This document shows positions 5,067 through 49,975 of a stretch of DNA of 51,027 nt, in pieces. The position numbers were made by a program, and so were the translations under genes. The notes beneath the pieces were generated by a model, which saw only the letters and a program-made list of their open reading frames with translations, did not search any database and had not been told where the DNA came from. Source of the stretch: Candidatus Aenigmatarchaeota archaeon (GTDB taxonomy: Archaea > Aenigmatarchaeota > Aenigmatarchaeia > CG10238-14); NCBI GenBank assembly GCA_044343545.1, contig JAWBZR010000004.1, positions 1-51,027 of the forward strand. The letters run 5' to 3'. Numbering within the stretch: position 1 is the first letter of the stretch; each line of letters starts with the position of its first letter.

Positions 5067-5318
5067 AAGGGTGTGTTGGCATAGCCCATCTTTTGTTCAA
5101 GATAGCATCCGTCTAAGCGCCAATGCTTGCATCTCATCGACCCTCCAGTCCGTTTCATCCTTTGTTGCCGGACGTCTTTTGCATTCATTCCATATCGGCA
5201 ACAAGGTCTCGTTTCTGAGACTGGAGAGGCAGCTCTCACCGCCTTTTAATCTCGATGGATGGAACTTCCTCACCTCTCTTTCGATGGAGAGGCGAAGCTA
5301 TCGTGCCAACTCACCCTT
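5067..5318 (-). ncRNA. rnpB: RNase P RNA, compact (~250 nt)
   Basis: Terminal P1 helix AAGGGUGAGUUGGC/GCCAACACACCCUU; conserved P4 strands GAGGAAGUUCCAUC and AACAAAAGAUGGGCUAU; internal GAAACG and GAUGCAAG; TTTATTAA box about 24 nt upstream. Confidence 0.9.
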
Positions 5319-5376
5319 GAAGTAAAATTTGTATGCAAATTTAATAAATTTTTTGATTCAAAACCAAGCAAAGACT

Positions 5377-5459
5377 AGCCTCAGGCGGGGATCGAACCCG
5401 CGACCTATCGCTTTCACTCCCTTACGAGGCGATCGCTCTACCAGCTGAGCTACTGAGGC
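5377..5459 (-). tRNA. tRNA-Thr(CGT) with a 10-nt insertion (intron) in the anticodon loop
   Basis: Acceptor GCCTCAG/CTGAGGC with discriminator U; D-arm GCTC/GAGC; anticodon stem ATCGC/GCGAT enclosing a 17-nt loop CTCGTAAGGGAGTGAAA; T-arm GCGGG-TTCGATC-CCCGC; no encoded CCA. Confidence 0.9.
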
Positions 5460-5524
5460 CTTAAAAGTTTAATAAATTCCAACTACATATAAATATAACA
5501 CTTTTGACTTTCTTGGGGTTTTTT

Positions 5525-36474: not shown

Positions 36475-37731
36475 ATGAAACGCATCATGATAATAGCTAT
36501 GGTTTTGCTCTTAATCCCTGTGGTAATAGCAATACAATGCTTTTTAAGGACAAATAGCTGTGAAAGCGGAGAGATTTGCTTATTTTCTAGGTATCAACAA
36601 GATAATAGCCATGTCGGCAATTGCTCCGCATATAGCTTGCTAACGTGTTGCTCAGACCCATTTTTAAGGAAGGCTGAAGTCAAAACATCTTGCGGCTTGG
36701 GCGAAAATGGTACCATAGCAATGTTTAACTACACTAATGCACATGCAGAAATTTTCGAGGCAAACAATTATCCCTACAAAGTTTGCGTGAGTTGTCCTTG
36801 GACGTGCACTTTAAGGACGAATTGTCTATCAGATGAATATAACTTGGCTTCGTTAAATGCAAGTACAAACTCTCATATAGCAACGCCAAACTATTACGCG
36901 AATCAAGTTTGTTGCAAAAGAGAATCCACACCACCCAATTATTCCAACTTGGGTCAAAACTCAACTGTTGTAGCTTTCGGAGGTTCGGTGAAAATTTACG
37001 CATATTGGCAAGATGAAGCTAATTTGTCTTACGTGATTTTGTCTACAAACGAAACAGGCACGTGGGAAAATAAAACAGCTTATAATTCACCTTTGAAAGT
37101 GGATGCGAATAATGGTTGGAGTAACTTCACTTGGCAGAACACTTCGGTTTACGGTGGAACTACTGTGGCATGGAAATTGTACGCCAATGATACGTGTGGC
37201 AATTGGAGAGAAACTGGAATAAATTTTTTTACCATCGAGCAAATACTTTCATTTCAAATTTCCCCAAAATTAATGGAGGGCATATTTTTTACAAATTTGA
37301 ATGGTTCGAAATACAACAAGCAAGAAAATATTGACATAGGTATATGGAACAATGCCACGTGGAATTACAACAACACGCCTCAACCTGGAGATAAAAAGAC
37401 ACTTTATTGGATTTATAATTCTGGTAACACCCTTCAAGATTTTTGTTTGAAAGCGAACACAAACCTCTTATGCAGTATAGGAGATTGCACTGGAAATTAC
37501 ATATCTGCAAACAATATTGCTTGGCAAAACTCGACAATAAATAGTGAGACATATCCAAATTTCGATACTTCGAAAAGGCTTGATACGTCTTACGTCAAGA
37601 TTGCAACAAACGTTCAACCTCAACAATACGTGTACTTTAGATTTTGGCTTTTTGGCGAGCCCTACAAGCCATCAGGCATTTACAATACTACCTTTTCCGT
37701 CAAAAACGTTTTGGCCGGACAAAGCTGCTAA
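36475..37731 (+). CDS. Secreted protein: three Cys-rich N(S/A)H repeats, an Ig-like domain and a C-terminal pilin-like domain (putative tip adhesin)
   Basis: Signal peptide; C-terminal ~165 aa aligns by eye with 47534-48154 and 49334-49975. Confidence 0.7.
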   Translation: MKRIMIIAMVLLLIPVVIAIQCFLRTNSCESGEICLFSRYQQDNSHVGNCSAYSLLTCCSDPFLRKAEVKTSCGLGENGTIAMFNYTNAHAEIFEANNYPYKVCVSCPWTCTLRTNCLSDEYNLASLNASTNSHIATPNYYANQVCCKRESTPPNYSNLGQNSTVVAFGGSVKIYAYWQDEANLSYVILSTNETGTWENKTAYNSPLKVDANNGWSNFTWQNTSVYGGTTVAWKLYANDTCGNWRETGINFFTIEQILSFQISPKLMEGIFFTNLNGSKYNKQENIDIGIWNNATWNYNNTPQPGDKKTLYWIYNSGNTLQDFCLKANTNLLCSIGDCTGNYISANNIAWQNSTINSETYPNFDTSKRLDTSYVKIATNVQPQQYVYFRFWLFGEPYKPSGIYNTTFSVKNVLAGQSC

Positions 37732-38889
37732 TTTTTTTTCAAATATTTGCTTTATTTCCTCATTTTGATAATAATCCCAAACGTTGGTGAGCCATTCAAA
37801 TGTCTTTTTAAGTAACGATTCCATTTCTCCATCCCACGCATTTTTTTGAATCATCTTGCTCCTAAGCAAATCTATTTGATTAATTGTTTGCAGTATCTCT
37901 TCTCTATCGAAACTCAAGTTTAGCATGTTAATTAACCGGAGAAACTTTATTTGATAGTTATAGCTTTCCAATCCCGAAGGTATACTTGCTTTTAAAGAAT
38001 TTGTTAAAGAGGCGACTTCGCTTATTACATTCATCAATTTTTGTTTTTCACTTTCCACATCCTTTTTTGCTTCTAATTTTGTCTGCTCTATGAAGGTTTT
38101 TAATTCATTCAAATAGTTTTTGTTCAATTCTTGAACATTCTTTTTGACCATTTCTTCTAAAAGTTTCTGTGCCGCGTCTTTTTCTATCATCTTTGTAACT
38201 TTGATGCTTATACCGTCTAGCATTTTGACTATGTCTATAGTCATGTCATCAAGCTTTTGTATTTTCGATTTAACATTTTCGACATCTTTCATCTTGCTTT
38301 CTAGCTCAGCAAATATGGTTTCTACTTTTCCCGCCAATCTATCTACGTAAAGCTTTGTATCATCTATCATTTGTATTTTTTCATGAAGCTTGTTATACAT
38401 GGAAATCAAATTATCCAAGCTTTTTATTTTTTCAAGAACTATCCTCAAAGATTGATTGTCTCTTTTCAAAACGGCAACCAAACTTTTCAATGCTTCCAAG
38501 TCAGCTTGAAGCCTTGTAATTTCGGCCTCTTTTTTTTGTAATTCCTTTGAAAATTTTTCTGGTTGTATTTGCTCAACTGCATCAATAGTTTTTTCTATCT
38601 TCGCCTCTAACGAGCTGAATCTTTTATCTAATTCCAAAAAAGATGATCTCAACTCTCCTATTTCTTCGGAAATTCTCGAAATTCTTTCGTTAATGTCATC
38701 TTTTATATCTTCAAAAGCAGAAAACTTTCCTTCCAACTTTTCAACTCTCAATAGCAAATCTATGTTATTTATTTCTGTTTGCTTTTTTTCCTGCAAAACC
38801 TTTTTTTCCTCTTCAACCTTTTGGACAGGAATTTCTTTTATCACGCCATACCTTTCTTTTAATTCTTCCTTTTTTTTGGGTACAATCAT
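37672..38889 (-). CDS. Cytoplasmic long coiled-coil protein
   Basis: Heptad-rich Glu/Lys/Leu sequence; no signal peptide or TM helix; ATGA overlap with the giant ATPase gene. Confidence 0.75.
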   Translation of the reverse strand: MIVPKKKEELKERYGVIKEIPVQKVEEEKKVLQEKKQTEINNIDLLLRVEKLEGKFSAFEDIKDDINERISRISEEIGELRSSFLELDKRFSSLEAKIEKTIDAVEQIQPEKFSKELQKKEAEITRLQADLEALKSLVAVLKRDNQSLRIVLEKIKSLDNLISMYNKLHEKIQMIDDTKLYVDRLAGKVETIFAELESKMKDVENVKSKIQKLDDMTIDIVKMLDGISIKVTKMIEKDAAQKLLEEMVKKNVQELNKNYLNELKTFIEQTKLEAKKDVESEKQKLMNVISEVASLTNSLKASIPSGLESYNYQIKFLRLINMLNLSFDREEILQTINQIDLLRSKMIQKNAWDGEMESLLKKTFEWLTNVWDYYQNEEIKQIFEKKLAALSGQNVFDGKGSIVNA

Positions 38890-41800
38890 TTACTCAACCC
38901 CAACTTTTTTTCTAAAGATTCTATGTATATTTCCGCAACTCTAAACATACCTTTCTTCAGCTTCTCTTTGGCTAATTTCAATTCTATCTTTAAATCAAAC
39001 ACATCCTTTCCTTCTCTTTCCAATCTCTCTATTTCCTGTTCTATTTTTTCGATTCTGGAATTATATTCTTTATACATTTGCATTTCCTGTTCGCTTATTT
39101 TATGAGGCATGTGCTTTGGTGGCTTGAAAGCGACGAACCAAGGCAAGCCTTTATTGTATTTTGGATTCTGAATCATACCTATACCTACTTCTTCTTTCGC
39201 AACTCTTCTTGCATACTCTAACCCATACTTCTTTTCGATTCTTTGAAGATCGCCTAAACTTTTTGTGTGCATTTGTATTTCTGTGAGCACGTTACCTTTT
39301 ATGGCTTCCTTAAAGTCTGACAAAACTTGAGAAACCATTATCAAGCCGATGCCCCACTTTCTAAATTCCCTGCATGCCCTTTCCAAAGCAATGTAGCCAC
39401 CTTTACCTCCATATTTTTCTAACAATCTATGAACCTCATCAAAAACTATTATGAGTCTTGGTTTCGTCGTTTCTTCCCAACTTTCACTGAATATAGAATT
39501 TATGATATTCGTTACAGCCTCATCATACTCGCCAGGCTTTAATTTGTTTAAAACAAACACGGTAATTTCTCCAGGATTCATGTATTTCTTTAAATCTATC
39601 TTTGCTTTGGGGTTCGTCATCTCATAAATATTACCTGGATATGATTTTGTATCATCTAAACTCATTCCGTGTTTCTTGTAATACTTTAACACATTTTCAT
39701 CTTTGCATGGTTTTACAAATCCTGTCCATTGAGCTGTTGGGTCGAAAACGACAACAGGTAGTTTTTTATCGAGAAGTTCCTCAGCAAAAACACTTGCAGT
39801 CACAGACTTTCCTGCTCCTGTCGAGCCAGCAATTATTACGTGTGTCATTAAATCTACAGAATCAAAAGTAGCTTTAACATCAGTTTCAGCTATCTTTCCA
39901 ATAGTTAAATCGCCTTTCGGCAACAAATTGAAATCTACTGGAAAGATGTATTTGAATTTCGATTTCTTCCACTTTTGATATCTTCTCACAGTCAAAACTA
40001 GTGCAACTATGCCTAATAATGAAGCGAAGACAATAAGAGCGTATCTTATAGTTTTTGCATTAATTATACTCAAAGCCACTTCAAAACTATCTATGGATGA
40101 GAGAATTTCATCATCATAACTTGCATTAACCATAACATAATACTTGCCACTTGATATGTTTGCAGGTAAACGTACATACTTTATAGCTTGATAAGGCGTC
40201 TTTACATAATTTATTTCATAAGCTTCATAAATCACATCTCCTCCCTTTATGGGTTTTATTGTGTAATTCATTTGCGAAAGAAATTCTTTTTTTTGGCCTA
40301 AACTAAATATGCTTACTTCGAAAGCTAAAGTTTCGTTCGGTTTCAAATTCTTTGTTATCACTTTAACTGTCAATTGAACTTCTTGTATATCTTTGCTCAC
40401 AAAAACAGTGACAGGCAATCTCTCCTTTCTTCCCGATGCAGAAACAACTATTTCGCCTGTATAAGTTCCACTTTCCATGTTTTCCGGAACTATCAACTCT
40501 ATGCTTATTTCTTTTTCTTTGTTAGAAGAAACTAACACGTTTCTTTCTTTCACCGTTAATATCTTTGAAACAATTCCATTTATCGAAATCTCTGCTTGCA
40601 ATGGTTGAGATGCGAGATTTGAAAGCCACAAAACATATCCTCTTTTCGTTCCAGGGCGCACATAATCTGTTGTAAGGTTCGTTTTCACGCTAAAACCTAA
40701 CATGCAATCTTGAGGACAGGAAAATGGATTTTCATCAGCATCGCAAACACCATTTCCGCATTTGCTTGTGTAAGATCCGCCTATACCACCACCTCCGCTT
40801 CCACTCGTTTGAGGACCAGCCAAACCACTTCCACATTCTCCGCAATCTTGAACGCAATTGACACAAGATTCGCCCATTCCGCAAATGCTGTTACCGCAGA
40901 TCTCTGCCTCGAATGCATAATATGCGGAAGCATTGTCTTGAATGGTGAAAATTTTGTGTTTTTCCGCATCCAAACTCGAGTTTACCTGAATCCATCCAGA
41001 TTTGCAAGTGCCGTTCCAATCACTGCACTTGTAAATCACCAAGGCCGGAGCATAATCTATTTCCATCAATTTTTTGGAGTAATCAAAGTAAATTGTGATG
41101 TTGGAATACGCAAAGTTCGTTGATATATACAATCCACCTACTTCATGCCTCCACGGGACAGGAGGATTGAGCAAAGAAAGCGGAATGGCCGAAATGTTTA
41201 ACGGGTTTGTTATGTTATCAGCAAGTTGTCTTTCTGCGGTTAGAGTGGCATTCAAGTTATTGAATATCAAGAAATGCCTTTGACCGATATCATCATCTAT
41301 TTCTGCTTTCAAATCATAGTTTCTTTTGTGTAACGTCATATTATGAAAGCCTGAAGGGTACGTGAAATTGTGTACCACTATTTGTGTGCCAGGCCTATAA
41401 AAAGTGAATCTTTTGGGATAGTTTGTTTCAGCGTAAAGTTGTATAGGCAAGTAAACTTCAAACCACGCTGTAACATTTGTTGTGAAGTTAGACGTATCAT
41501 TAGCAAACAAAAACACATCATAATCGCCAACTTCATTTAAATTTGTAAAGTTTATTTCCCATATAGTTTGTCTTTTATCAGGTGTTTTATTGCTTAAAAC
41601 GATTTCTTGCTCACTCCCATCAGGATATTTAACTAAACCCCAAACAGCATCTACACCATACCAATCGCTTACATCTACATTCAGCTTGACATCACCACCT
41701 TTTAACGTTGAATTTATGGTAATGTTGTTTATTTTTGGCGGCATAGTATCTACTTCTATTATCAAGATATCTGCAAAGTCTTGAGCAACAGAAACGTTGA

Positions 41801-44800
41801 ATTTTCTATACTCATCCAATTCTTGATCGCTTATATTACACAATATTTTATACCAACCCTCAGGGACTTCTTCGGGAGATGAAATATTCCACGTATAATT
41901 CACTCTTCCTGTGGGATAGATCGTGTTCAGCTCAGCCAATATGCTCTGATTGCCTTCATAAACCTTTACTATACTTACCTTATAACCATCCAGCTTGATA
42001 TTCGTGGTGTTAGCATCGCTAACTTCACAAACTATATCTATTTTCCTCAAGGTTTCTGTTCTATTGTAAGTTCCGTTTATCGGATGTATCATCTTGACGC
42101 TCGACCATCCGTATATGTCGATGCTTCTGTTACTCGAGCCAAATTCATAAACATTCCCGTAAGCCTTCAATGATAGTAACAACTTTCCTGGATTGCATTC
42201 CACCCGCCAACTTGTATTACCTTCATTTAATGTTGTTTGGTATGGCAAATAACCATTAGTGGTGCAATTTAATATCCAAATTGTGTCGTAATTTTCTGTT
42301 GGAGCGCCGCAAGAATCTGATATTGAAAAGGACAAGTTCATTTCGTTGCCCTTGTGATATATTTCGTTAGGTTGAGGAGATAAAATGTTTGCGTTTAACC
42401 TATCCTTTAAATAGATTTGATTTTGATCCGAACTTTTATTATACAAATAATAATCATTTGCATTTCCACTCAAGCTCACATTTAAATTGTAAGCACCCAA
42501 TTCATACGAGCAATCTGGTATGAATCTCACAAGGCAAATTCCGTTAGATTGCGTTTGATTCGCGCCTATAACGGTTTGATTCAAGTAAAAGGAGCAAACA
42601 TAGCCAGATTGATTTATTGTTTTGCCAAATTCATCATATATTTTTGCTTCTAAAATCTTTTGTTGATTTCTTGTGATATTGCTTTTCATACTTTCGGTTA
42701 AGTTTACGTTTATTTTCCCGTAAATCCCAATTGTGAAATTTTCGCTGATACTATCATTGTAATAACTATCATTGTAAACTCCCACTTTCCACCATCTTAA
42801 CCCAGGTATGTAAGATGAGTTTGGAATAAGCTCGTATTTGCAATGACCTGAAGAATTGCTCACAGCATCATAGTGCATCCAATGAGTATCGTTAAAACTA
42901 ACAAAGAATCTACATTTAACGTTACCTATACTTTCATTAATCACAGTATCGTTTATTAATGCGACCAGCCGCACGCTTTCAGTTCTGTTAACCGATGCAC
43001 CCATCCCTTCTATCGCTATTGCTTGCGTAGTGTGCTTACTCACATTAGGAGCATAATAAATCGAGTGAACAAACCAATCGTGATATTCTACGTTTTCGTC
43101 AAAATCCTTGAGTTGAATGGACAGCAAATTAAAACCAGTCCAAGAAATGTTACTTTCAAGCACGAAACTTACTTCCTCTCCAATATTGGTGTTTCCTGTA
43201 GAGTTTGTCTCATTTATGCAGTACCATTCAGCAGATGAAACATTAACCTTGTTTAAGTCAAAAGTATGTGTAAGATTTAAGCAAATTCTCACGCTAACAT
43301 TGTTTCCTTCAGCATCGCTTATATTGAATTTAACGGTAAAATTTTTTCCCCAAAAATCTTCTGCTGGAGTTATTGAAAAATTAAATGCAACGGGAGGATT
43401 ATTGGCAGAGCCTGATAATTCGTAAAGCACGAAGCTTCTGTTAGTATGTGGTTGCTTCCAAGAAAAGAAATCTATCTTACCATCACCATTTGTGTCTTGT
43501 TTACAAACGTAAAACTCATCATCACCTATCATTATTTTTGTGTATGTTGGATTTGACGTGTTGCAATTCGTCTGGCTGTTTGGAGGAGTGATATCATAAA
43601 ATACATTGTTGCCAAACCAGTCAACTTCAAGTTTAGAGTTGCCCGTAATATAGTTATCATCCAAGCTAGCATTCAAACTCACATTAAAGAATATTTGCGT
43701 CGTGACATTCCATACAGTCACATTCCTTTTCCAAAAACCATACTCTGAAACACCATCGCTTTCATTGTAAAAAATTGGTATAGATTTGCTCATAGTATCG
43801 TCCCACAGATAATCAAAAGTGGCGTTTGCCGAAATTTGCCTGAAGCTAATGTTACAAACTTTCCTTCCATCTATGATAACAACTTGGTATCTTTTTCCAT
43901 TGAAATCACAAACGAAAGCATCTTGATCTATTGTGATGTAATTGAAAGCCACTTCGTGAGCGGGAGGCTTCAAGTAACTTATGTTTTTTATTTGGTTACC
44001 AACACTTTCATTTCCTCTTATTTCAGCAATTCTTGACCAATATGGCGAGATGGTTACAGTAAAAATATCTGAAATGTTGTAGGAGTAAGTGATGTTTAAA
44101 GACGAAACTTTTAAAATACCTGCATAGTCAGAATGAAAAACTATAGGCACTGAGCAAAGACCATTTTCATCCCCTTCGCACGTGTTCAAATAAATTTGGA
44201 AAGCAGTATTATTTGTTACTATATCTTGCGTTCTGAATTTTCCTGGATAGAACCATTCTCTCACCCCATCATTGCCTATATCTACGTAAAGATTTGTGGG
44301 AAAATATTCAAAATTTAATATATAAAGCGTGTTCGTCGCAGGTATTATCGTGCCAGCAACTACTTCATTACCTATATCGTTAGTTAAATTGCCTATACCT
44401 ATCCCTTTGACATCATTTTCAGTCTTGTATTTCCAAACAAGAGAACCCGTTGCGTTTACTACATAAACATTATCATCATCACTTCCGAAAACTATTTCCC
44501 TCCCCTCATATTCACTCGTCACTTCACTTATTTTTATTTTATTTATCGCATAAGTGCTGAAAGAAGTGGAAAACAATATGTTGAGATTGTTATCCAGCAA
44601 GTATATTGTTCCGTTTGTCAATGCCACGGCAATTTCATCATAGCCATAACCATCTATATTACTTACATGTACATCCTTCAAGTTTCCTATGCTTCTCGAT
44701 GACTTTAAATCGCCAGTAGAATTTATGATGTAAATGTTAGAGCTTGTAACCGCAACTATTTCTTTTCCTTGATCATCACCTAAATCTCCAGCACTAACAC

Positions 44801-45482
44801 CTTCAAATGGCAAAGAAGTGGAAAACGACCAAATTTCGTTTAGATTGTTATCAAGCAAGTAAAGTTTATCTGACGCAACAATTATTTCATCAAAAGGATT
44901 ACTCGTGTTAATATCACTTATTTCTATTTCCTTTATATCATAGTTCATATTTTTGGTGCTCAACAAATTTCCGGTAGAATTTAAAACATATATTATTCTT
45001 GTACTTGCTGCAGCAACTATTTCCATCCCCCTATCGCTACTTAGATTGCCTGCCGAAACTGCAGGAACAGAGGCAGCTATGCTGTAATTCCAAATTTGAA
45101 AGCCACTTGAATTTAATAATTTCAAGTTTTGCTCAGAACCCGTGACACCAACCAAGATTTCATCCCATTCGTTATCTTCAATTATATTGCCTACAAAAAG
45201 ATCAAGAACTTGTTGTTGCGTTGATGTAATTATAGGTTTGGATATTCCTTCTATTTTTATCAAACTATCCAAAATAGTGGAGTTTTTTGGTATGTTTATC
45301 CAAACTGTTTTTTCTTCGTTGGAATTGAACACAATTTCTTTGCTTGTCGAAGAATCATTAAGTTGGTAATTGGAAAAGTTGAACGTAGGATTATTCAAGT
45401 CAAAAATAAATGTGTGCTGTTGCACGGCAAGAACGATATCGAAGCAAGAAAAGACGGCTAGGAAAAAAATCAATCTTTTCAT
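38886..45482 (-). CDS. Giant single-pass protein: extracellular FG-GAP-like beta-propeller, Ig-like and Cys-rich repeats fused to a cytoplasmic HerA/FtsK-type (DUF87-like) ATPase
   Basis: Signal MKRLIFF...; (D/E)G-x-x-EI(V/I)(V/A) propeller repeats; CGNxxC...CxxDC twice; TM at about 40045-39990; THVIIAGSTGAGKS, VVVFDPTAQW, IIVFDEVH and REFRKWGIGLIMVSQ. Confidence 0.88.
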   Translation of the reverse strand: MKRLIFFLAVFSCFDIVLAVQQHTFIFDLNNPTFNFSNYQLNDSSTSKEIVFNSNEEKTVWINIPKNSTILDSLIKIEGISKPIITSTQQQVLDLFVGNIIEDNEWDEILVGVTGSEQNLKLLNSSGFQIWNYSIAASVPAVSAGNLSSDRGMEIVAAASTRIIYVLNSTGNLLSTKNMNYDIKEIEISDINTSNPFDEIIVASDKLYLLDNNLNEIWSFSTSLPFEGVSAGDLGDDQGKEIVAVTSSNIYIINSTGDLKSSRSIGNLKDVHVSNIDGYGYDEIAVALTNGTIYLLDNNLNILFSTSFSTYAINKIKISEVTSEYEGREIVFGSDDDNVYVVNATGSLVWKYKTENDVKGIGIGNLTNDIGNEVVAGTIIPATNTLYILNFEYFPTNLYVDIGNDGVREWFYPGKFRTQDIVTNNTAFQIYLNTCEGDENGLCSVPIVFHSDYAGILKVSSLNITYSYNISDIFTVTISPYWSRIAEIRGNESVGNQIKNISYLKPPAHEVAFNYITIDQDAFVCDFNGKRYQVVIIDGRKVCNISFRQISANATFDYLWDDTMSKSIPIFYNESDGVSEYGFWKRNVTVWNVTTQIFFNVSLNASLDDNYITGNSKLEVDWFGNNVFYDITPPNSQTNCNTSNPTYTKIMIGDDEFYVCKQDTNGDGKIDFFSWKQPHTNRSFVLYELSGSANNPPVAFNFSITPAEDFWGKNFTVKFNISDAEGNNVSVRICLNLTHTFDLNKVNVSSAEWYCINETNSTGNTNIGEEVSFVLESNISWTGFNLLSIQLKDFDENVEYHDWFVHSIYYAPNVSKHTTQAIAIEGMGASVNRTESVRLVALINDTVINESIGNVKCRFFVSFNDTHWMHYDAVSNSSGHCKYELIPNSSYIPGLRWWKVGVYNDSYYNDSISENFTIGIYGKINVNLTESMKSNITRNQQKILEAKIYDEFGKTINQSGYVCSFYLNQTVIGANQTQSNGICLVRFIPDCSYELGAYNLNVSLSGNANDYYLYNKSSDQNQIYLKDRLNANILSPQPNEIYHKGNEMNLSFSISDSCGAPTENYDTIWILNCTTNGYLPYQTTLNEGNTSWRVECNPGKLLLSLKAYGNVYEFGSSNRSIDIYGWSSVKMIHPINGTYNRTETLRKIDIVCEVSDANTTNIKLDGYKVSIVKVYEGNQSILAELNTIYPTGRVNYTWNISSPEEVPEGWYKILCNISDQELDEYRKFNVSVAQDFADILIIEVDTMPPKINNITINSTLKGGDVKLNVDVSDWYGVDAVWGLVKYPDGSEQEIVLSNKTPDKRQTIWEINFTNLNEVGDYDVFLFANDTSNFTTNVTAWFEVYLPIQLYAETNYPKRFTFYRPGTQIVVHNFTYPSGFHNMTLHKRNYDLKAEIDDDIGQRHFLIFNNLNATLTAERQLADNITNPLNISAIPLSLLNPPVPWRHEVGGLYISTNFAYSNITIYFDYSKKLMEIDYAPALVIYKCSDWNGTCKSGWIQVNSSLDAEKHKIFTIQDNASAYYAFEAEICGNSICGMGESCVNCVQDCGECGSGLAGPQTSGSGGGGIGGSYTSKCGNGVCDADENPFSCPQDCMLGFSVKTNLTTDYVRPGTKRGYVLWLSNLASQPLQAEISINGIVSKILTVKERNVLVSSNKEKEISIELIVPENMESGTYTGEIVVSASGRKERLPVTVFVSKDIQEVQLTVKVITKNLKPNETLAFEVSIFSLGQKKEFLSQMNYTIKPIKGGDVIYEAYEINYVKTPYQAIKYVRLPANISSGKYYVMVNASYDDEILSSIDSFEVALSIINAKTIRYALIVFASLLGIVALVLTVRRYQKWKKSKFKYIFPVDFNLLPKGDLTIGKIAETDVKATFDSVDLMTHVIIAGSTGAGKSVTASVFAEELLDKKLPVVVFDPTAQWTGFVKPCKDENVLKYYKKHGMSLDDTKSYPGNIYEMTNPKAKIDLKKYMNPGEITVFVLNKLKPGEYDEAVTNIINSIFSESWEETTKPRLIIVFDEVHRLLEKYGGKGGYIALERACREFRKWGIGLIMVSQVLSDFKEAIKGNVLTEIQMHTKSLGDLQRIEKKYGLEYARRVAKEEVGIGMIQNPKYNKGLPWFVAFKPPKHMPHKISEQEMQMYKEYNSRIEKIEQEIERLEREGKDVFDLKIELKLAKEKLKKGMFRVAEIYIESLEKKLGLSK

Positions 45483-45523
45483 TTCAATGCTCATAAAATC
45501 TATTATTGATTTTATAATTAAAT

Positions 45524-47497
45524 TTATGGAGTGCCTCCCAACCTTTCTTTTATTTCTTTCAACCTTTCTTCAACCTTTCTCTCTTTTTGTTTCTTATAAG
45601 CTACATACGCCAAATATATCGCCAATAGCAAAATTATTATCATTATAAAAAGCTCGAGCAATGACAAAGACACGTATTTTATCAAGATATTTATTTTCGG
45701 GCAAAAGTTCTTGTAATCTTTCATTTCAATAGAAACTTCAACACTTTCTTTTGCATCTCTTACTGCTTTCATGAAAGGAGGGAGTGCAAATATCTTTACC
45801 TTATAATATCTTCCTTTCATCAATATGTTCGCCTTTTCCATCAAGATTTCATAATCTTCTATTACTTTCAGAAATAACTCTTGCGATTTTTTGTAATCTT
45901 CTTTTTTCATGTATTCCTCGGCTAATGCAAATATATTGTTTGCTTCATCCATTTGCATTTTCAAGGAGGAAATATCCAAACAATTAAGTAATAAAATCTC
46001 GCTGGAATTTTTTTTAAGCATCTTCGCTTTTTCGTAAAGCATCAACGTCAAGTTCCTTTCATCGGTGGACAACCAAAAAATCAATCTTTCCTCATTGCTT
46101 TCTACTTCATTAACGGCTTTGACATTAACCTGATAAACGCCTTCCTTGGCATTTAATGAAGGTTTTATGAAAACCAAGAAACTTTTTTCTTCACCTACTT
46201 TCAGCTTGTCAATTTTGTAAGGTGTAATGTAGATCCATTCATTTGGCACTCCATCCACTTTTAATTTTATGCTTGACAGCTCCTTTTCGCCTGTATTTTT
46301 CACCTTTACTTCAAAGCTGCTTATGTTGCCTACAACACCCCCTATCTTGTATTTGTTCGCCTTTATCTCCAGCTTTTTGATTTCTATCTTCATTTGAGGA
46401 AAAGTTTCTCCACCTGAAATGGGTTGAGCGGGTTGTTTACATTCGATCAAATTAAATGTATCATAAGAAGAAATGTTTACTTTCCAATTTTCTGAAGTCA
46501 CATCCAAAATGGTGTGAAACGTGTACAACCCGCTATCAGCATTAGGCAAATTTAAGCTCACTATTTTTTCTAAATTATCTACAACAGCTATAGTTTCTTT
46601 TTTTTGAGCGTATGCATTGCTACCTTGTTGAACAATATAAGTAAGGTTTACATCCATCATACCTGGCGGAAACATTTTTAACACGTTTATTTTCGCTTTT
46701 ACTTCCCCTCCCTTACACGATTCTTTATATTGCGGAAGCACCTCGGTTTGCACGTCAAAAATAGCACTTGTCTGCACGTGAATCTTTACAGGTATATTCA
46801 AGACGACTTCATTATTTATATATGCCGCAATGTTGCCTTCATAATCTCCAGGCAAAGTATTCCAAGGCAAATCTATAAATATCAGAACTCTCGTGTAATT
46901 CCACGTTTCTGGGCTCAAATAAACAGGATTTTGTGAAAAATATATCCAATCTTTTATCTCCCCACTTTTGTTAAGAGTTACAGTTACACCATTGCACGCA
47001 AACATAAGCCACAGATAAAGATCTTTATTTATAAAATCTCCAGGAAAAACGGTTTCTTCTATGAAAGAAGGCGATGATACTAAAGTACCATATGATTGCT
47101 TTATTCTAAAGCTTGTTTGATTTCTAATGGTCATTCCGCTATAATTCAAATCTATAATCACGTGATACATTCCAGCAATATCACTATCTTTAACCTCTCT
47201 CAAAAAATAGTAGACTCTCTTTTCCAAAGGATTTATAGGTTGATCGTTCCAACTAACATTGTCATAAATTTCCAAATATTGATTCAATATGGTTTTGCTG
47301 AGGTTGAATAAGGTAGGTAAGTTTCCTACATTATTAACTTCTGATGTTATGTTGATTGTTTCGTTAGGGCAATAAGCTAAGGAAGACAGCTTGAAATCAA
47401 AAAGAAGATTGGGTTTGGCAGTCACGGACGAATTCATTATGACTTGGGCCGAGCATATAGGAAGCGAGATTAATAAAAATATCAACAGCAATCGCAT
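45524..47497 (-). CDS. Secreted multi-Ig protein with a helical stalk and C-terminal TM anchor
   Basis: Signal peptide followed by QVIMNSSV; CARDB/NEW3-like VNNVGN and VKNTGE domains; C-terminal TM helix and basic tail. Confidence 0.75.
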   Translation of the reverse strand: MRLLLIFLLISLPICSAQVIMNSSVTAKPNLLFDFKLSSLAYCPNETINITSEVNNVGNLPTLFNLSKTILNQYLEIYDNVSWNDQPINPLEKRVYYFLREVKDSDIAGMYHVIIDLNYSGMTIRNQTSFRIKQSYGTLVSSPSFIEETVFPGDFINKDLYLWLMFACNGVTVTLNKSGEIKDWIYFSQNPVYLSPETWNYTRVLIFIDLPWNTLPGDYEGNIAAYINNEVVLNIPVKIHVQTSAIFDVQTEVLPQYKESCKGGEVKAKINVLKMFPPGMMDVNLTYIVQQGSNAYAQKKETIAVVDNLEKIVSLNLPNADSGLYTFHTILDVTSENWKVNISSYDTFNLIECKQPAQPISGGETFPQMKIEIKKLEIKANKYKIGGVVGNISSFEVKVKNTGEKELSSIKLKVDGVPNEWIYITPYKIDKLKVGEEKSFLVFIKPSLNAKEGVYQVNVKAVNEVESNEERLIFWLSTDERNLTLMLYEKAKMLKKNSSEILLLNCLDISSLKMQMDEANNIFALAEEYMKKEDYKKSQELFLKVIEDYEILMEKANILMKGRYYKVKIFALPPFMKAVRDAKESVEVSIEMKDYKNFCPKINILIKYVSLSLLELFIMIIILLLAIYLAYVAYKKQKERKVEERLKEIKERLGGTP

Positions 47498-47533: not shown

Positions 47534-48154
47534 ATGTCAAGAGAATTATTTAATGTGAAGGCAGAAAGGATATTGTTGATGTTCATTGTTTTTTGTCTTT
47601 TCTTGAAAGTGAATGAATCGGCAGACTTCATTTCTATCATGAACAGTTCTCTTGTACCCTATAACTTTTACTACATACAAACAAGTGCCGAGCTTTCCAA
47701 GGGAATATTATTCACGAATTCTACCGGCTCTGAAGAAAACAAGCAGTATCCTTTAATAGCAGGAAGTTGGGCCAACAACGCGATATGGAATTACAACAAG
47801 TCTAGCGGAAAAACAGAATATTGGGTGTTTGTTTATGTTATGGGAGTGGAATTGGATTTGTGTCACAATGCGAAGAATCATTTGTGTTCCACTCAAAATT
47901 GTAGCGGGCCTAACAACTATTTGATAGATATCAAGAATGCGAGATGGAGCATTTCGCTTCAGAATGATCTGGAAAATCCATCCCTAGCAGATTCCATTAG
48001 CTTTTCTCTTCAGCCTGAAAAATTTGCGACGAAAATAGGTTCGCCAACGACAATCTATTTTAGATATTGGCTTGACGTCCCGCCAAATTCTTCTGCAGCA
48101 AGCTATAACACTACCTATCAGATAACGAGTGTGGTGAGTGGATATGAATGCTAA
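47534..48154 (+). CDS. Secreted pilin-like subunit (paralog family A)
   Basis: Signal peptide; ISIMNSSL, GILFTNSTG, NNAIWNY, YFRYWLDVPPN and YNTTYQI; ends in Cys; start may be GTG 47555. Confidence 0.7.
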   Translation: MSRELFNVKAERILLMFIVFCLFLKVNESADFISIMNSSLVPYNFYYIQTSAELSKGILFTNSTGSEENKQYPLIAGSWANNAIWNYNKSSGKTEYWVFVYVMGVELDLCHNAKNHLCSTQNCSGPNNYLIDIKNARWSISLQNDLENPSLADSISFSLQPEKFATKIGSPTTIYFRYWLDVPPNSSAASYNTTYQITSVVSGYEC

Positions 48155-48650
48155 GCTTTTGCTTTTACTTTTAATTCCGATTTGTGCCTCAAAAACGTTG
48201 GGTGTATTTCCAACAAATGAAACTGTGGTAATAAACCCTTTCACAACACTCAATTTTGCATTTTATCTTCTCAATCCTTCTGATGAAGACGTTTATTTAA
48301 CTATAAATTTGTCGTGTGTTTGCAACAAGGAAATATATCAATATGCAGATGTATATCCTAAGCAAATCATCGTAGAAAAAAACACTACATTGTTGAACCC
48401 CAAACCAGTTTTGGTGAGAATAAAAAATCCTTTATTCTTGGAAAAGAAATTCAAAGGTGTAAAATTTATTCAGCCTATATTCGGTCAAAAGCAGCTTAGT
48501 TGCAGACTATCTGCAGTGTCGGAAGGACAAACTTCTTTAACAATTACATCTCAGTTGAATGCGAAACTAGTAGGAATAAATCCATTGAAATTATTCGCGT
48601 TAATCTTTCTATTATCATTTCTTCTTGCCATCTTTCTTCTTAGAGCTTAA
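48138..48650 (+). CDS. Membrane-anchored Ig-fold chaperone-like protein (paralog family B)
   Basis: Signal peptide; LGVFP...FYLLNPS; C-terminal TM helix; aligns with 48615-49319. Confidence 0.6.
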   Translation: MDMNAKLLLLLLIPICASKTLGVFPTNETVVINPFTTLNFAFYLLNPSDEDVYLTINLSCVCNKEIYQYADVYPKQIIVEKNTTLLNPKPVLVRIKNPLFLEKKFKGVKFIQPIFGQKQLSCRLSAVSEGQTSLTITSQLNAKLVGINPLKLFALIFLLSFLLAIFLLRA

Positions 48651-49319
48651 TTTCTTGTAAACAAATATCGTCGTTAATATCACCAGCAAGCAAAGGATTA
48701 TAAAGCTAGATAAAGGCATGCCCCTTGCATTCACTTCCAAGCTTGAACCAACGGAAGGGGTGACCCCCATACTTCCAAAACTAGAAGCATAAACGTCAGC
48801 AACTATCAAGCCCGTCAGCTTTTTTTCGCCTATGAACAAGCTATAGTACGGAAGAGTGAAACTGCCACCGTATTTTTTATTAAAAATTTTTATGAAAAAA
48901 TTTATCGCCTCTGGCGTGTATATTTTCAAGCTATTTTTGATTAAAAATTTTGGAGCAAAGATGATTTTTACGCTGGGTGCCTTTTCACCAAAAGAATTTG
49001 GTTGGATCGTGACATCATCCTTGTCAAAAACAAAAAACGATTTATGATCTATGGTTCTCTCTGCAACTTTTTTTCCAAATATTCTTACTTCTTTTGTGCA
49101 ATCCTTGCATTCGAAATATACCCTTGCTTTTATTTCATATATAGATGGATTTATCAATCTAATTGTGGTCACGTAATAATCAAAAACACTTCCTGATAAA
49201 TTTATGGAATAAGTGCTTATACCTATACCAACACCCTCGCTTGCTTCAGCTTGATAAAACCAAAAGAAAAAAAATAATATGATGAAGCAATACTTAAATA
49301 AAATTATTTTTTCTTTCAT
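48615..49319 (-). CDS. Membrane-anchored Ig-fold chaperone-like protein (paralog family B)
   Basis: Signal peptide; IGIS...IRLINPS and FIGEKKL; C-terminal TM helix and Lys tail. Confidence 0.6.
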   Translation of the reverse strand: MKEKIILFKYCFIILFFFFWFYQAEASEGVGIGISTYSINLSGSVFDYYVTTIRLINPSIYEIKARVYFECKDCTKEVRIFGKKVAERTIDHKSFFVFDKDDVTIQPNSFGEKAPSVKIIFAPKFLIKNSLKIYTPEAINFFIKIFNKKYGGSFTLPYYSLFIGEKKLTGLIVADVYASSFGSMGVTPSVGSSLEVNARGMPLSSFIILCLLVILTTIFVYKKLSSKKKDGKKK

Positions 49320-49333
49320 TTAACATAACCTTT

Positions 49334-49975
49334 TCAACAATTGCAGGTTCCAAACGATTGTGAGATTTCTACCGCTCTTATCTTGAAAGTATTGTTGTAA
49401 ACTCCTGAAGGTGCATTGTTTGGCCTGGGATCTATCCAGTATCTCATGTATATATAGCTACCAGGCGCCAAATTTCCCGCTATTAATTGATATGTATCTA
49501 TATCAGGAAAATAATAGTTGCTGTTGGGTGGAGAGTGAGTGGCGAATGTAGCAGTCGTACCATTTGCCCAACCAACGCCTCCATCAGTTGTGTAATTAAC
49601 GTAAAGCATGTCCACATCTTTAGCACAATCACCGCTGCTACATTTTAAGTTGTCGCACGCGCAGTGTGCTATTTTAATGTTAATCGTGTTTCCTGAACAT
49701 GCTTGAGCACTGTATACCGTACCACCTGATGCGCCCCAATAATTGCCCGTAGCATTGTTAAGTACAAGCATATTTGTTATAGGATATTGCACTCCAATAG
49801 TTGTGGTATTTGTAAAGAATATACCAGCCGAATAGTTGCCGGATAATTGAACACAAATAGGTTGCTGTATGCTAGCATTCATTATTGAAGTATACTCTTG
49901 TTGCCCACCTGTAACTGTTAGAGCTAGACATGCTATTAAGATGGCGATAGGAATTAGCAAATAATTTTCATTCAT
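49334..49975 (-). CDS. Secreted pilin-like subunit (paralog family A)
   Basis: Signal peptide; TSIMNASI, GIFFTNTT, NNATGNY, YMRYWIDPRPNNAPSGVYNNTFKI; ends GTCNC. Confidence 0.7.
   Translation of the reverse strand: MNENYLLIPIAILIACLALTVTGGQQEYTSIMNASIQQPICVQLSGNYSAGIFFTNTTTIGVQYPITNMLVLNNATGNYWGASGGTVYSAQACSGNTINIKIAHCACDNLKCSSGDCAKDVDMLYVNYTTDGGVGWANGTTATFATHSPPNSNYYFPDIDTYQLIAGNLAPGSYIYMRYWIDPRPNNAPSGVYNNTFKIRAVEISQSFGTCNC

Follow-up and report, generated by a model that had tools for sequence, protein, structure and literature searches.

The question raised by this locus is what a protein may do that carries some 1,800 residues outside the cell and an ATPase of the HerA/FtsK superfamily inside it, the two being joined by one transmembrane (TM) helix. 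The gene lies in a 51,027-nucleotide stretch of DNA from Candidatus Aenigmatarchaeota archaeon (contig JAWBZR010000004.1 of assembly GCA_044343545.1; the whole stretch is called the window here), in which the original prediction had seen a candidate one-gene machine for contact and transfer (host attachment, uptake or injection). By homology, its product (P0001, 2202 aa) is an Aenigmatarchaeota member of the SPEARE family, which is known but functionally unsolved. The best explanation, to which we assign a probability of about 0.8, is that P0001 is a SPEARE protein with a glycosylated arm, one TM helix, a HerA-clade motor that probably forms a ring and a coiled-coil partner, which would bundle arms at the site of cell contact. 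The gene and the predicted parts of its product (residue numbers refer to P0001) are as follows.

38886..45494, minus strand: the whole SPEARE-type gene, P0001, 2202 aa; the open reading frame (ORF) is intact and has full-length orthologs of ~2200 aa in many Aenigmatarchaeota assemblies.
45423..45494, minus strand: N-terminal Sec-type signal peptide, residues 1 to ~24, sequence MSIEMKRLIFFLAVFSCFDIVLAVQQ, with hydrophobic residues 8-26.
44295..45212, minus strand: 7-bladed beta-propeller head, residues ~95-400, with seven repeats and Pfam propeller matches.
41625..44294, minus strand: variable sequon-rich middle ectodomain, residues ~401-1290, assigned to no family, 32-65% identical to orthologs.
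40044..41624, minus strand: conserved membrane-proximal stalk, residues ~1291-1817, collinear in alignment with the membrane-proximal ectodomain of NAR1_1133.
39987..40043, minus strand: single TM helix, residues 1818-1836 (hydropathy score 2.62), followed by the basic cluster RRYQKWKKSKFK.
39099..39974, minus strand: HerA-clade RecA-type ATPase, residues ~1841-2132, assigned by DUF87, HerA_C, an AlphaFold2 (AF2) model and the Foldseek match to HerA 4d2i.
39804-39830, minus strand: Walker A motif AGSTGAGKS, located exactly.
39726-39743, minus strand: motif DPTAQW, located exactly.
39429-39452, minus strand: Walker B motif IIVFDEVH, located exactly.
39327-39371, minus strand: REFRKWGIGLIMVSQ, the REFRKWG...SQ motif with the trans-acting Arg/Lys pair, located exactly.
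38889..39098, minus strand: C-terminal three-helix tail, residues ~2133-2202 (AF2 helices at model residues 305-330, 336-350 and 354-367).

SPEARE proteins were described as giant, mostly extracytoplasmic proteins of Nanohaloarchaeota whose single TM helix lies close to the C-terminus and whose cytoplasmic portion is conserved, and relatives were listed in Aenigmarchaeota, Woesearchaeota, Micrarchaeota and Altiarchaeales (Hamm 2019, PMC6642349). Examples are NAR1_1133 of Ca. Nanohaloarchaeum antarcticus (5,998 aa), the protein of Ca. Nanopetramus SG9 and SVXNc_0300 (9,409 aa) (PMC6642349, PMC10266531). In a re-analysis from 2023, the domain order was given as a Sec signal, an Ig-like domain, two PQQ-like beta-propellers, tandem Ig-like domains, a TM helix, a cytosolic 'VirB4/TraG-like' ATPase and a coiled-coil tip, and host binding plus effector secretion was proposed (PMC10266531). 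Host binding plus transfer had already been proposed by Hamm 2019 (PMC6642349), and contact combined with uptake or injection is thus no new idea. We took the type sequence NAR1_1133 from Fig. S18 of the PMC6642349 supplement. Residues 1800-2202 of P0001 aligned in BLASTP with its C-terminus (41% identity over 360 aa, E 4e-98), and residues 1200-2202 were collinear with it over 957 aa (28% identity, E 2e-108). The similarity is not confined to the P-loop, and the length of the collinear alignment indicates a conserved core made up of stalk, TM helix, motor and tail. The architecture had therefore already been published as SPEARE (PMC6642349, PMC10266531).

Two observations weigh against this assignment. 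Nanohaloarchaeal SPEARE genes were reported to be followed immediately by another ATPase gene of their own family (PMC10266531), whereas the gene directly downstream of P0001 encodes a coiled-coil protein. The Pfam scan of P0001 also gave no Laminin_G match at E <= 0.1; at least one laminin-G domain is a feature of the halophile examples (PMC6642349), although this feature was not used in the re-analysis (PMC10266531). The accessions cited by Hamm 2019 were not surfaced by a homolog search seeded from a Nanohaloarchaea-labelled metagenome-assembled genome (MAG) or by two cluster look-ups. Makarova 2014 (PMC4158269) does not describe a SPEARE-type family, and nothing specific was found in the literature on Aenigmarchaeota with DUF87 or on HerA with surface proteins.

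The ORF of P0001 runs uninterrupted over 38886..45494 on the minus strand with zero internal stops. Its start had been placed at 45482, which is the second Met (Met5, MKRLIFF...) and plausibly the true one. Besides the N-terminal signal (residues 8-26), residues 1818-1836 form the sole other hydrophobic helix, and by the positive-inside rule the basic run RRYQKWKKSKFK just after it places the C-terminus in the cytoplasm. N-x-S/T sequons number 85 in the 1820-aa ectodomain (27.5 expected from composition) and 0 in the 352-aa cytoplasmic part (1 expected), while 31 of the 33 cysteines are extracytoplasmic. The sequons, the cysteines and the basic cluster all agree with the pattern of a predicted N-out/C-in glycoprotein. 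SPEARE proteins have this same topology, with a chain that lies mainly outside the cytoplasm, spans the membrane once near its C-terminus and ends in the cytoplasm. The signal peptide, the sequon-rich exterior, the one TM helix and the ATPase inside the cell, all of which belonged to the original prediction, were borne out by these data.

The fusion of the two halves was found in independent sequence data. A 45.5-kb contig (depth 29.5) from one hot-spring run passes through the TM junction and differs from the window by one mismatch over 38600-41600, and short contigs from three further samples, one of them from a second study, cover 39772-40311 with zero mismatches. The junction is thus covered by contigs from four samples in two studies. 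The last 403 residues, searched against 5.8 billion proteins, retrieved 447 relatives, nearly all of 1,300-3,800 aa and from Aenigmatarchaeota or other DPANN MAGs. An exhaustive HMMER scan of 1.84 billion cluster representatives gave 356 clusters (50% identity) at E < 1e-30, with lengths of 356-7,878 aa and the ATPase at or near the C-terminus. Among 248 relatives, nearly all have a TM helix ahead of Walker A, at a median distance of 57 residues, and the ectodomain varies from ~60 to ~7500 aa on a near-constant motor. In the GTDB species-representative genomes, relatives are encoded by at least 566 stretches. The occurrence of the same fusion in other DPANN genomes, which the original prediction had proposed to look for, was thus confirmed in hundreds of assemblies, and no chimeric join was seen at the TM helix.

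The motor was assigned by profiles and by predicted fold. Pfam gave DUF87 (HerA central domain, E 5e-12) and HerA_C (E 1.6e-8). A profile of 18 family motors, searched against the PDB, placed Sulfolobus HerA 4d2i first (1e-14) and FtsK at just 2e-3. The AF2 model of the cytoplasmic part, which drew on 58 motors of the fetched loci (L numbers below), had a pLDDT of 91.5 and a pTM of 0.89. In Foldseek, the top PDB matches of this model were HerA structures (best 4d2i, E 9e-13), FtsK, STIV2 B204 and TcpA ranked 34, 36 and 40, respectively, and no VirB4 appeared in the top 50. The best NCBIfam match was CedD (E 8e-15, 54.5 bits vs a cut-off of 600), followed by the HerA models (26-39 bits vs cut-offs of 800-970), all far below their cut-offs. 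On these searches and the model, the motor is of the HerA clade and not VirB4/TraG or ResIII, and the published labels 'type III restriction enzyme' and 'VirB4/TraG-like' find no support beyond the superfamily level. The ATPase with every motif named in the original prediction was therefore confirmed; among the classes left open there (HerA, VirB4 and TrwB), HerA was best by sequence profile and fold, whereas VirB4/TraG was not supported. An FtsK/SpoIIIE assignment was not supported either, as Pfam FtsK_SpoIIIE reached 15.8 bits vs a cut-off of 24, there is one TM helix and only a helical tail follows the motor.

All motor motifs are invariant across the 58 loci. R2045/K2046 in REFRKWG, also invariant there, align with R466/K467 of Thermococcus kodakarensis HerA (TkoHerA), which reach the ATP of the neighbouring subunit in trans and without which it is not hydrolysed (PMC12977600). 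The invariant pair points to a ring enzyme whose active sites lie between subunits, and together with the RecA core and the DUF87/HerA motifs it makes the motor HerA-type. The remaining attributes of HerA-NurA were not found. As had been predicted, the HAS barrel is absent, with just ~57 aa between the TM helix and Walker A, and NurA was not found in the neighbourhood. In the alignment, 37 residues of P0001 stand where TkoHerA has 122, a region of ~85 residues being absent; it is this region, in and around the four-helix-bundle domain, that holds the DNA-contacting residues Q262, T325, R328 and K332 of TkoHerA (PMC12977600). The motor is accordingly a minimal HerA core with a three-helix tail, lacking both the HAS barrel and the DNA-gripping four-helix bundle. 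The tail, also foreseen in the original prediction, is kept across the family (ELKLAKDKLKxGxFRMAEIYI) and in NAR1_1133.

The ectodomain contains the adhesion domains expected of a SPEARE protein, the propeller clearly and the Ig-like stalk by weaker matches. The propeller consists of seven repeats at 42-45 aa spacing with the pattern x-G-D/N-...-D/E-E-I-V-x (residues 101-382, window 44349-45194); Pfam Beta-prop_CGLA matched above its cut-off (E 1.3e-13) and Beta-prop_ACSF4 and PQQ_2 below theirs, in accordance with the propeller repeats seen earlier at ~45200-44300. Beyond the propeller there are ~1,400 aa of sequon-rich ectodomain, whose middle part (residues ~401-1290) had no Pfam match at E <= 0.1. 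The stalk holds two Cys-rich modules (40704-40898), a Gly-rich linker and two domains of Ig-like type. The CGNxxC...CxxDC modules were located exactly where they had been noticed, as CGNSICGMGESCVNCVQDCGEC at 40833-40898 and CGNGVCDADENPFSCPQDC at 40704-40760. The Ig-like assignment rests on sub-threshold profile matches near the membrane (DUF4625 and WxLIP_PGBD) and on the alignment with the NAR1_1133 stalk. The Ig-like repeats are thus the weaker part of the original prediction, and self-BLAST of P0001 found no significant internal sequence repeats. No laminin-G, serine-protease or toxin-like region was detected in the Pfam scan of P0001.

The nearest relatives of P0001 all come from Aenigmatarchaeota MAGs and the source is hot-spring metagenomes, in agreement with the DPANN-type archaeon of the original prediction. 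In a maximum-likelihood tree, 87 motors of the family fall into two clades. One, the 'paired' clade, has giant and short copies in tandem, and the members of a pair fall together or close in the tree; the other, the 'single' clade, contains P0001 with the hot-spring Aenigmatarchaeota loci L004-L007. Tandem pairs were seen at L003:1-12170 (= L054), L048, L051, L067, L072, L077, L081 and L083, each combining a giant copy, which in the full record for L003 has 12,127 aa, with a short one of 550-1,400 aa. That the motors of a pair are often mutual nearest relatives suggests concerted evolution or repeated duplication. The Hydrothermarchaeota motors (L032, on a 1.9-Mb contig of Ca. Hydrothermarchaeum profundi, L065 and L076) nest inside the single clade, whose other members are mostly Aenigmatarchaeota, and the motor with its coiled-coil module was also found in MAGs labelled Methanosarcinales (L026, L072, L077 and L083) and Halobacteria (L074). 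Judged by these genomes, the SPEARE family is not confined to DPANN archaea. A 3.4-kb contig labelled Heimdallarchaeota (L010) carries a motor that is sister to that of Aenigmatarchaeota L018 (support 100/99) and is probably mis-binned rather than an Asgard copy. Deeper contigs of the same hot-spring runs match just the conserved motor motifs (39426-39446, 39562-39600 and 39705-39749), which indicates that several different SPEARE-type genes coexist in the hot-spring community.

P0001 does not stand alone, and the features next to it are the following.

37672..38889, minus strand: cytoplasmic coiled-coil partner, P0002, 405 aa, whose ATG overlaps the P0001 stop codon (ATGA), the two genes being translationally coupled.
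45524..47497, minus strand: upstream single-pass surface protein, P0003, 657 aa, with a signal peptide, a NEW3/CARDB domain and a C-terminal TM helix.
47534-48154 (plus strand), 49334-49975 (minus strand) and 36475-37731 (plus strand): three paralogous secreted proteins of one family, with no Pfam match.

Clustering of the fetched loci, 81 of them distinct, placed a homolog of P0002 downstream of the ATPase gene in 70 and directly next to it (position +1) in 63, and no other neighbour was near-universal. A machine made of one gene, as originally proposed, is therefore not what the locus encodes. P0002 is 43% identical to the L001 partner (E 5e-55) and 31% identical (E 1e-29) to that of L003, which stands beside a distant DPANN ATPase gene of 1,389 aa. 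Its AF2 model (pLDDT 78) has four helices, three of them long, and a compact helical domain at the C-terminus. The model had no PDB match (best E 0.8), and 61 partner homologs gave only generic coiled-coil families in Pfam; neither an ESCRT-III/PspA-like nor a cytoskeletal fold was seen in these searches. The partner is not mentioned in the published SPEARE accounts PMC6642349 and PMC10266531. In one subclade, a gene of 255-336 aa without a Pfam family separates the ATPase gene from the partner gene in L021, L027, L032, L040, L041 and L075, and a gene of the same size follows the ATPase in L079, where no partner was found.

The other neighbours are clade-specific. P0003 (Pfam NPCBM_assoc, 1.6e-6) shares 36% identity with the upstream gene of L001; its family occurs in 16 loci and immediately upstream in 6. 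P0003 showed no BLASTP similarity to P0001 (best E 0.82), and a tandem Ig stalk module shared by the two is invisible at the sequence level. The family of small secreted proteins to which the three paralogs belong recurs beside SPEARE genes in 7 loci and, with signal/TM proteins of 170 and 234 aa (48138-49319), forms a clade-specific accessory set. A gene for a ParA/MinD-like ATPase lies a few genes downstream of the SPEARE gene in 8 loci (L001:16524-17279 among them), at position +2 in 6 of the 8, but none is near the window copy. Three metatranscriptomes of the same study gave 0 reads on the locus in a 3-5% subsample, which is uninformative about expression. The window has a G+C content of ~35% and is archaeal, as indicated by an archaeal RNase P RNA (5071-5314, 103.8 bits), which adjoins a tRNA-Thr(CGU) at 5376-5460 (85 nt, longer than usual).

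The components on which a mechanism can be built are demonstrated at the level of sequence: an exported, glycosylated arm, a single anchor helix, a HerA-clade ATPase with intact ring-type catalytic residues and a coupled partner. A ring oligomer of P0001 motors, most likely a hexamer, would be implied by the conserved trans Arg/Lys pair. The ring would lie flat under the membrane, given the ~20 residues between the TM helix and the first core strand in the AF2 model. About six arms would thereby be gathered into a single organelle that contacts and binds another cell. The turnover of ATP by the ring, in concert with the coiled-coil partner, would then power or gate some event where the cells touch. 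Our leading guess at this event, and a tentative one, is that a polymer, either nucleic acid or protein, is moved from cell to cell on contact. This guess is favoured by the behaviour of the superfamily, by membrane tethering like that of FtsK, VirD4 and CedD and by the auxotrophy of DPANN archaea.

Several points weigh against this mechanism. The TM helix, one per chain, is the least conserved segment: identity among the ~2,200-aa orthologs is 67-89% in the motor and 27-66% in the ectodomain, but only 4-43% in the TM helix, so that it looks like a plain anchor and is unlikely to be a channel. A polytopic membrane protein occurred within four genes in 14 of 61 loci by a crude hydropathy scan, and these proteins were heterogeneous. 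No channel partner is thus conserved nearby, and the four-helix-bundle region that holds the DNA contacts of TkoHerA has been lost (alignment gaps and PMC12977600). With the TM helix unconserved and both a polytopic partner and the bundle missing, a pore of six TM helices appears doubtful. The Sir2-HerA and DUF4297-HerA defence rings act as scaffolds and not as pumps, according to the titles of their PDB entries. A further point is the taxonomic range of the family. Hydrothermarchaeota and the lineages of the MAGs labelled Methanosarcinales and Halobacteria are not known to be episymbionts. No experiment on a family member is known to have shown oligomerisation, ATPase activity or transport.

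The alternative that survives best retains the ring and dispenses with transport. The ring would cluster six arms onto a coiled-coil scaffold, and ATP would switch assembly, avidity or tension, as in an integrin-type inside-out adhesion device. The soluble coiled-coil protein as the sole universal partner, the anchor-like TM helix, the missing channel protein, the motor stripped of the HerA DNA-gripping bundle and HAS barrel, the 7-bladed propeller head on a stalk with a single TM helix and the range of ectodomains (~60 to ~7500 aa) on an almost constant motor all fit such an adhesin. However, a fully conserved active site of the translocase type (55-89% identity across phyla) would be costly for a clustering hub, the partner has no recognisable cytoskeletal fold, and the characterised membrane-tethered members, FtsK, VirD4 and CedB/CedD, all move polymers (PMC11823120 and general knowledge). 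We regard this adhesin as possible, but on the whole rather unlikely. A more speculative version, for which we see only a slim chance, is that the SPEARE motor and its partner form the core of an undescribed archaeal envelope machine and not a DNA pump, with the motor, a minimal ring stripped of both HerA domains for substrate handling and hung from an unconserved anchor helix, acting on the coiled-coil protein. The motor would then build, tension or release a scaffold under the contact site in an integrin-like, ATP-driven control of adhesion. If this were true, SPEARE would be a general archaeal device for cell-cell contact rather than a symbiont weapon, given the copies in Hydrothermarchaeota and in MAGs labelled Methanosarcinales.

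It is improbable that P0001 is a type IV secretion component, with a VirB4/TraG-like motor and the giant protein as an effector-injecting 'straw' (PMC10266531). The superfamily is the same, TraC (24.6 bits), TraD and TraB gave weak NCBIfam matches, a few relatives carry precomputed AAA_10 or T4SS-DNA_transf matches, and a second ATPase gene follows the giant gene in the paired subfamily. But all T4SS models stay far below their cut-offs (24.6 vs 567 bits for TraC and 16 vs 366 for TraD), HerA outranks every conjugation ATPase by sequence and fold, and CagE_TrbE_VirB was not matched in the Pfam scan. Where a 'second ATPase' lies downstream, it is a SPEARE-motor paralog with its own ectodomain and not a VirB4. 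Nothing like VirB3, VirB6, VirB8, CedA or a pilin was found by Pfam among the neighbours in the window and the sampled loci, nor any secretion-system component among the window neighbours and the recurrent neighbours elsewhere. Membership in VirB4 or VirD4-TraG was consequently rejected, the models being below cut-off and VirB4 missing from the Foldseek top 50.

Even less credible is DNA import and degradation, in which the cytoplasmic part would be a type III restriction enzyme and break down the host DNA that enters (PMC6642349). Pfam ResIII matches residues 1883-2027 (E 0.0014, 19 bits) and is precomputed for several relatives, but the match falls short of the 22.5-bit cut-off and spans no more than the P-loop core. 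Nuclease and helicase C-terminal domains are missing, and fold and motifs (DPxxxW and the Arg/Lys pair of REFRKWG) are HerA-type. PMC10266531 likewise concluded against a type III restriction enzyme. An assembly chimera, in which misassembly would have fused two genes at the TM helix, one for an adhesin and one for an ATPase, has a negligible chance and was refuted by the junction-crossing contigs and by the recurrence of the fusion with constant TM-to-Walker-A spacing in hundreds of independent assemblies, with nothing found in its favour.

SPEARE proteins are the most conspicuous candidate tools by which DPANN archaea may hold and exploit other cells. The additions made here to the published accounts are the HerA-clade motor, the weak conservation of the TM helix, the lack of a conserved polytopic partner, the coiled-coil gene and the reach to Hydrothermarchaeota. 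The comparative results narrow the options to a stripped HerA core with ring-type catalysis, an anchor helix unlikely to be a channel and a conserved cytoplasmic partner. The motor with its tail, with and without the partner, offers concrete constructs for biochemistry and cryo-electron microscopy, and proteins of thermophiles are often easier to handle.

Among known systems, FtsK/SpoIIIE and Streptomyces TraB share with P0001 the ring-ATPase superfamily and a motor at the inner face of the membrane. Pumps of these types have several TM helices and DNA-recognition domains, whereas P0001 has one unconserved TM helix and no DNA-recognition domain; FtsK also ranked only 34 by fold, reached E 2e-3 by profile and was below the Pfam cut-off. 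CedD/CedB are similarly membrane-tethered archaeal ATPases of the HerA/FtsK superfamily at cell-cell contacts (PMC11823120). CedD differs in its N-terminal TM helix, in having no ectodomain and in working with CedA, CedA1 and CedA2, and the Ced system is restricted to Thermoproteota (PMC11823120). The CedD model gave P0001 54.5 bits vs a cut-off of 600, CedA, CedA1 and CedA2 were not found in the scanned neighbourhoods, and P0001 was not counted as a CedD. Archaeal HerA, a translocase of DNA end resection (Sulfolobus 4d2i, T. kodakarensis HerA-NurA 9x1l/9x1m), is the best match by sequence profile and fold. DPxGxY of HerA corresponds to DPTAQW of P0001 and AREGRKFG...SQ to CREFRKWG...SQ, the Walker A and B motifs also correspond, and both proteins have a C-terminal helical extension. 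P0001 differs from HerA in being anchored in the membrane with an ectodomain, and in lacking the HAS barrel, the four-helix bundle and a NurA neighbour. The described SPEARE proteins share with P0001 the signal, propeller, Ig-like region, TM helix, P-loop ATPase and helical tip in the same order, and P0001 even shows the weak ResIII match that gave SPEARE its name. P0001 is much smaller (2,202 aa), comes from hot-spring Aenigmatarchaeota and not from a halophile, belongs to the single clade without a second ATPase gene downstream, and has no laminin-G, serine-protease or toxin-like region detected by Pfam. It adds to the family a compact 2.2-kaa member from a thermophile, and not a new architecture.

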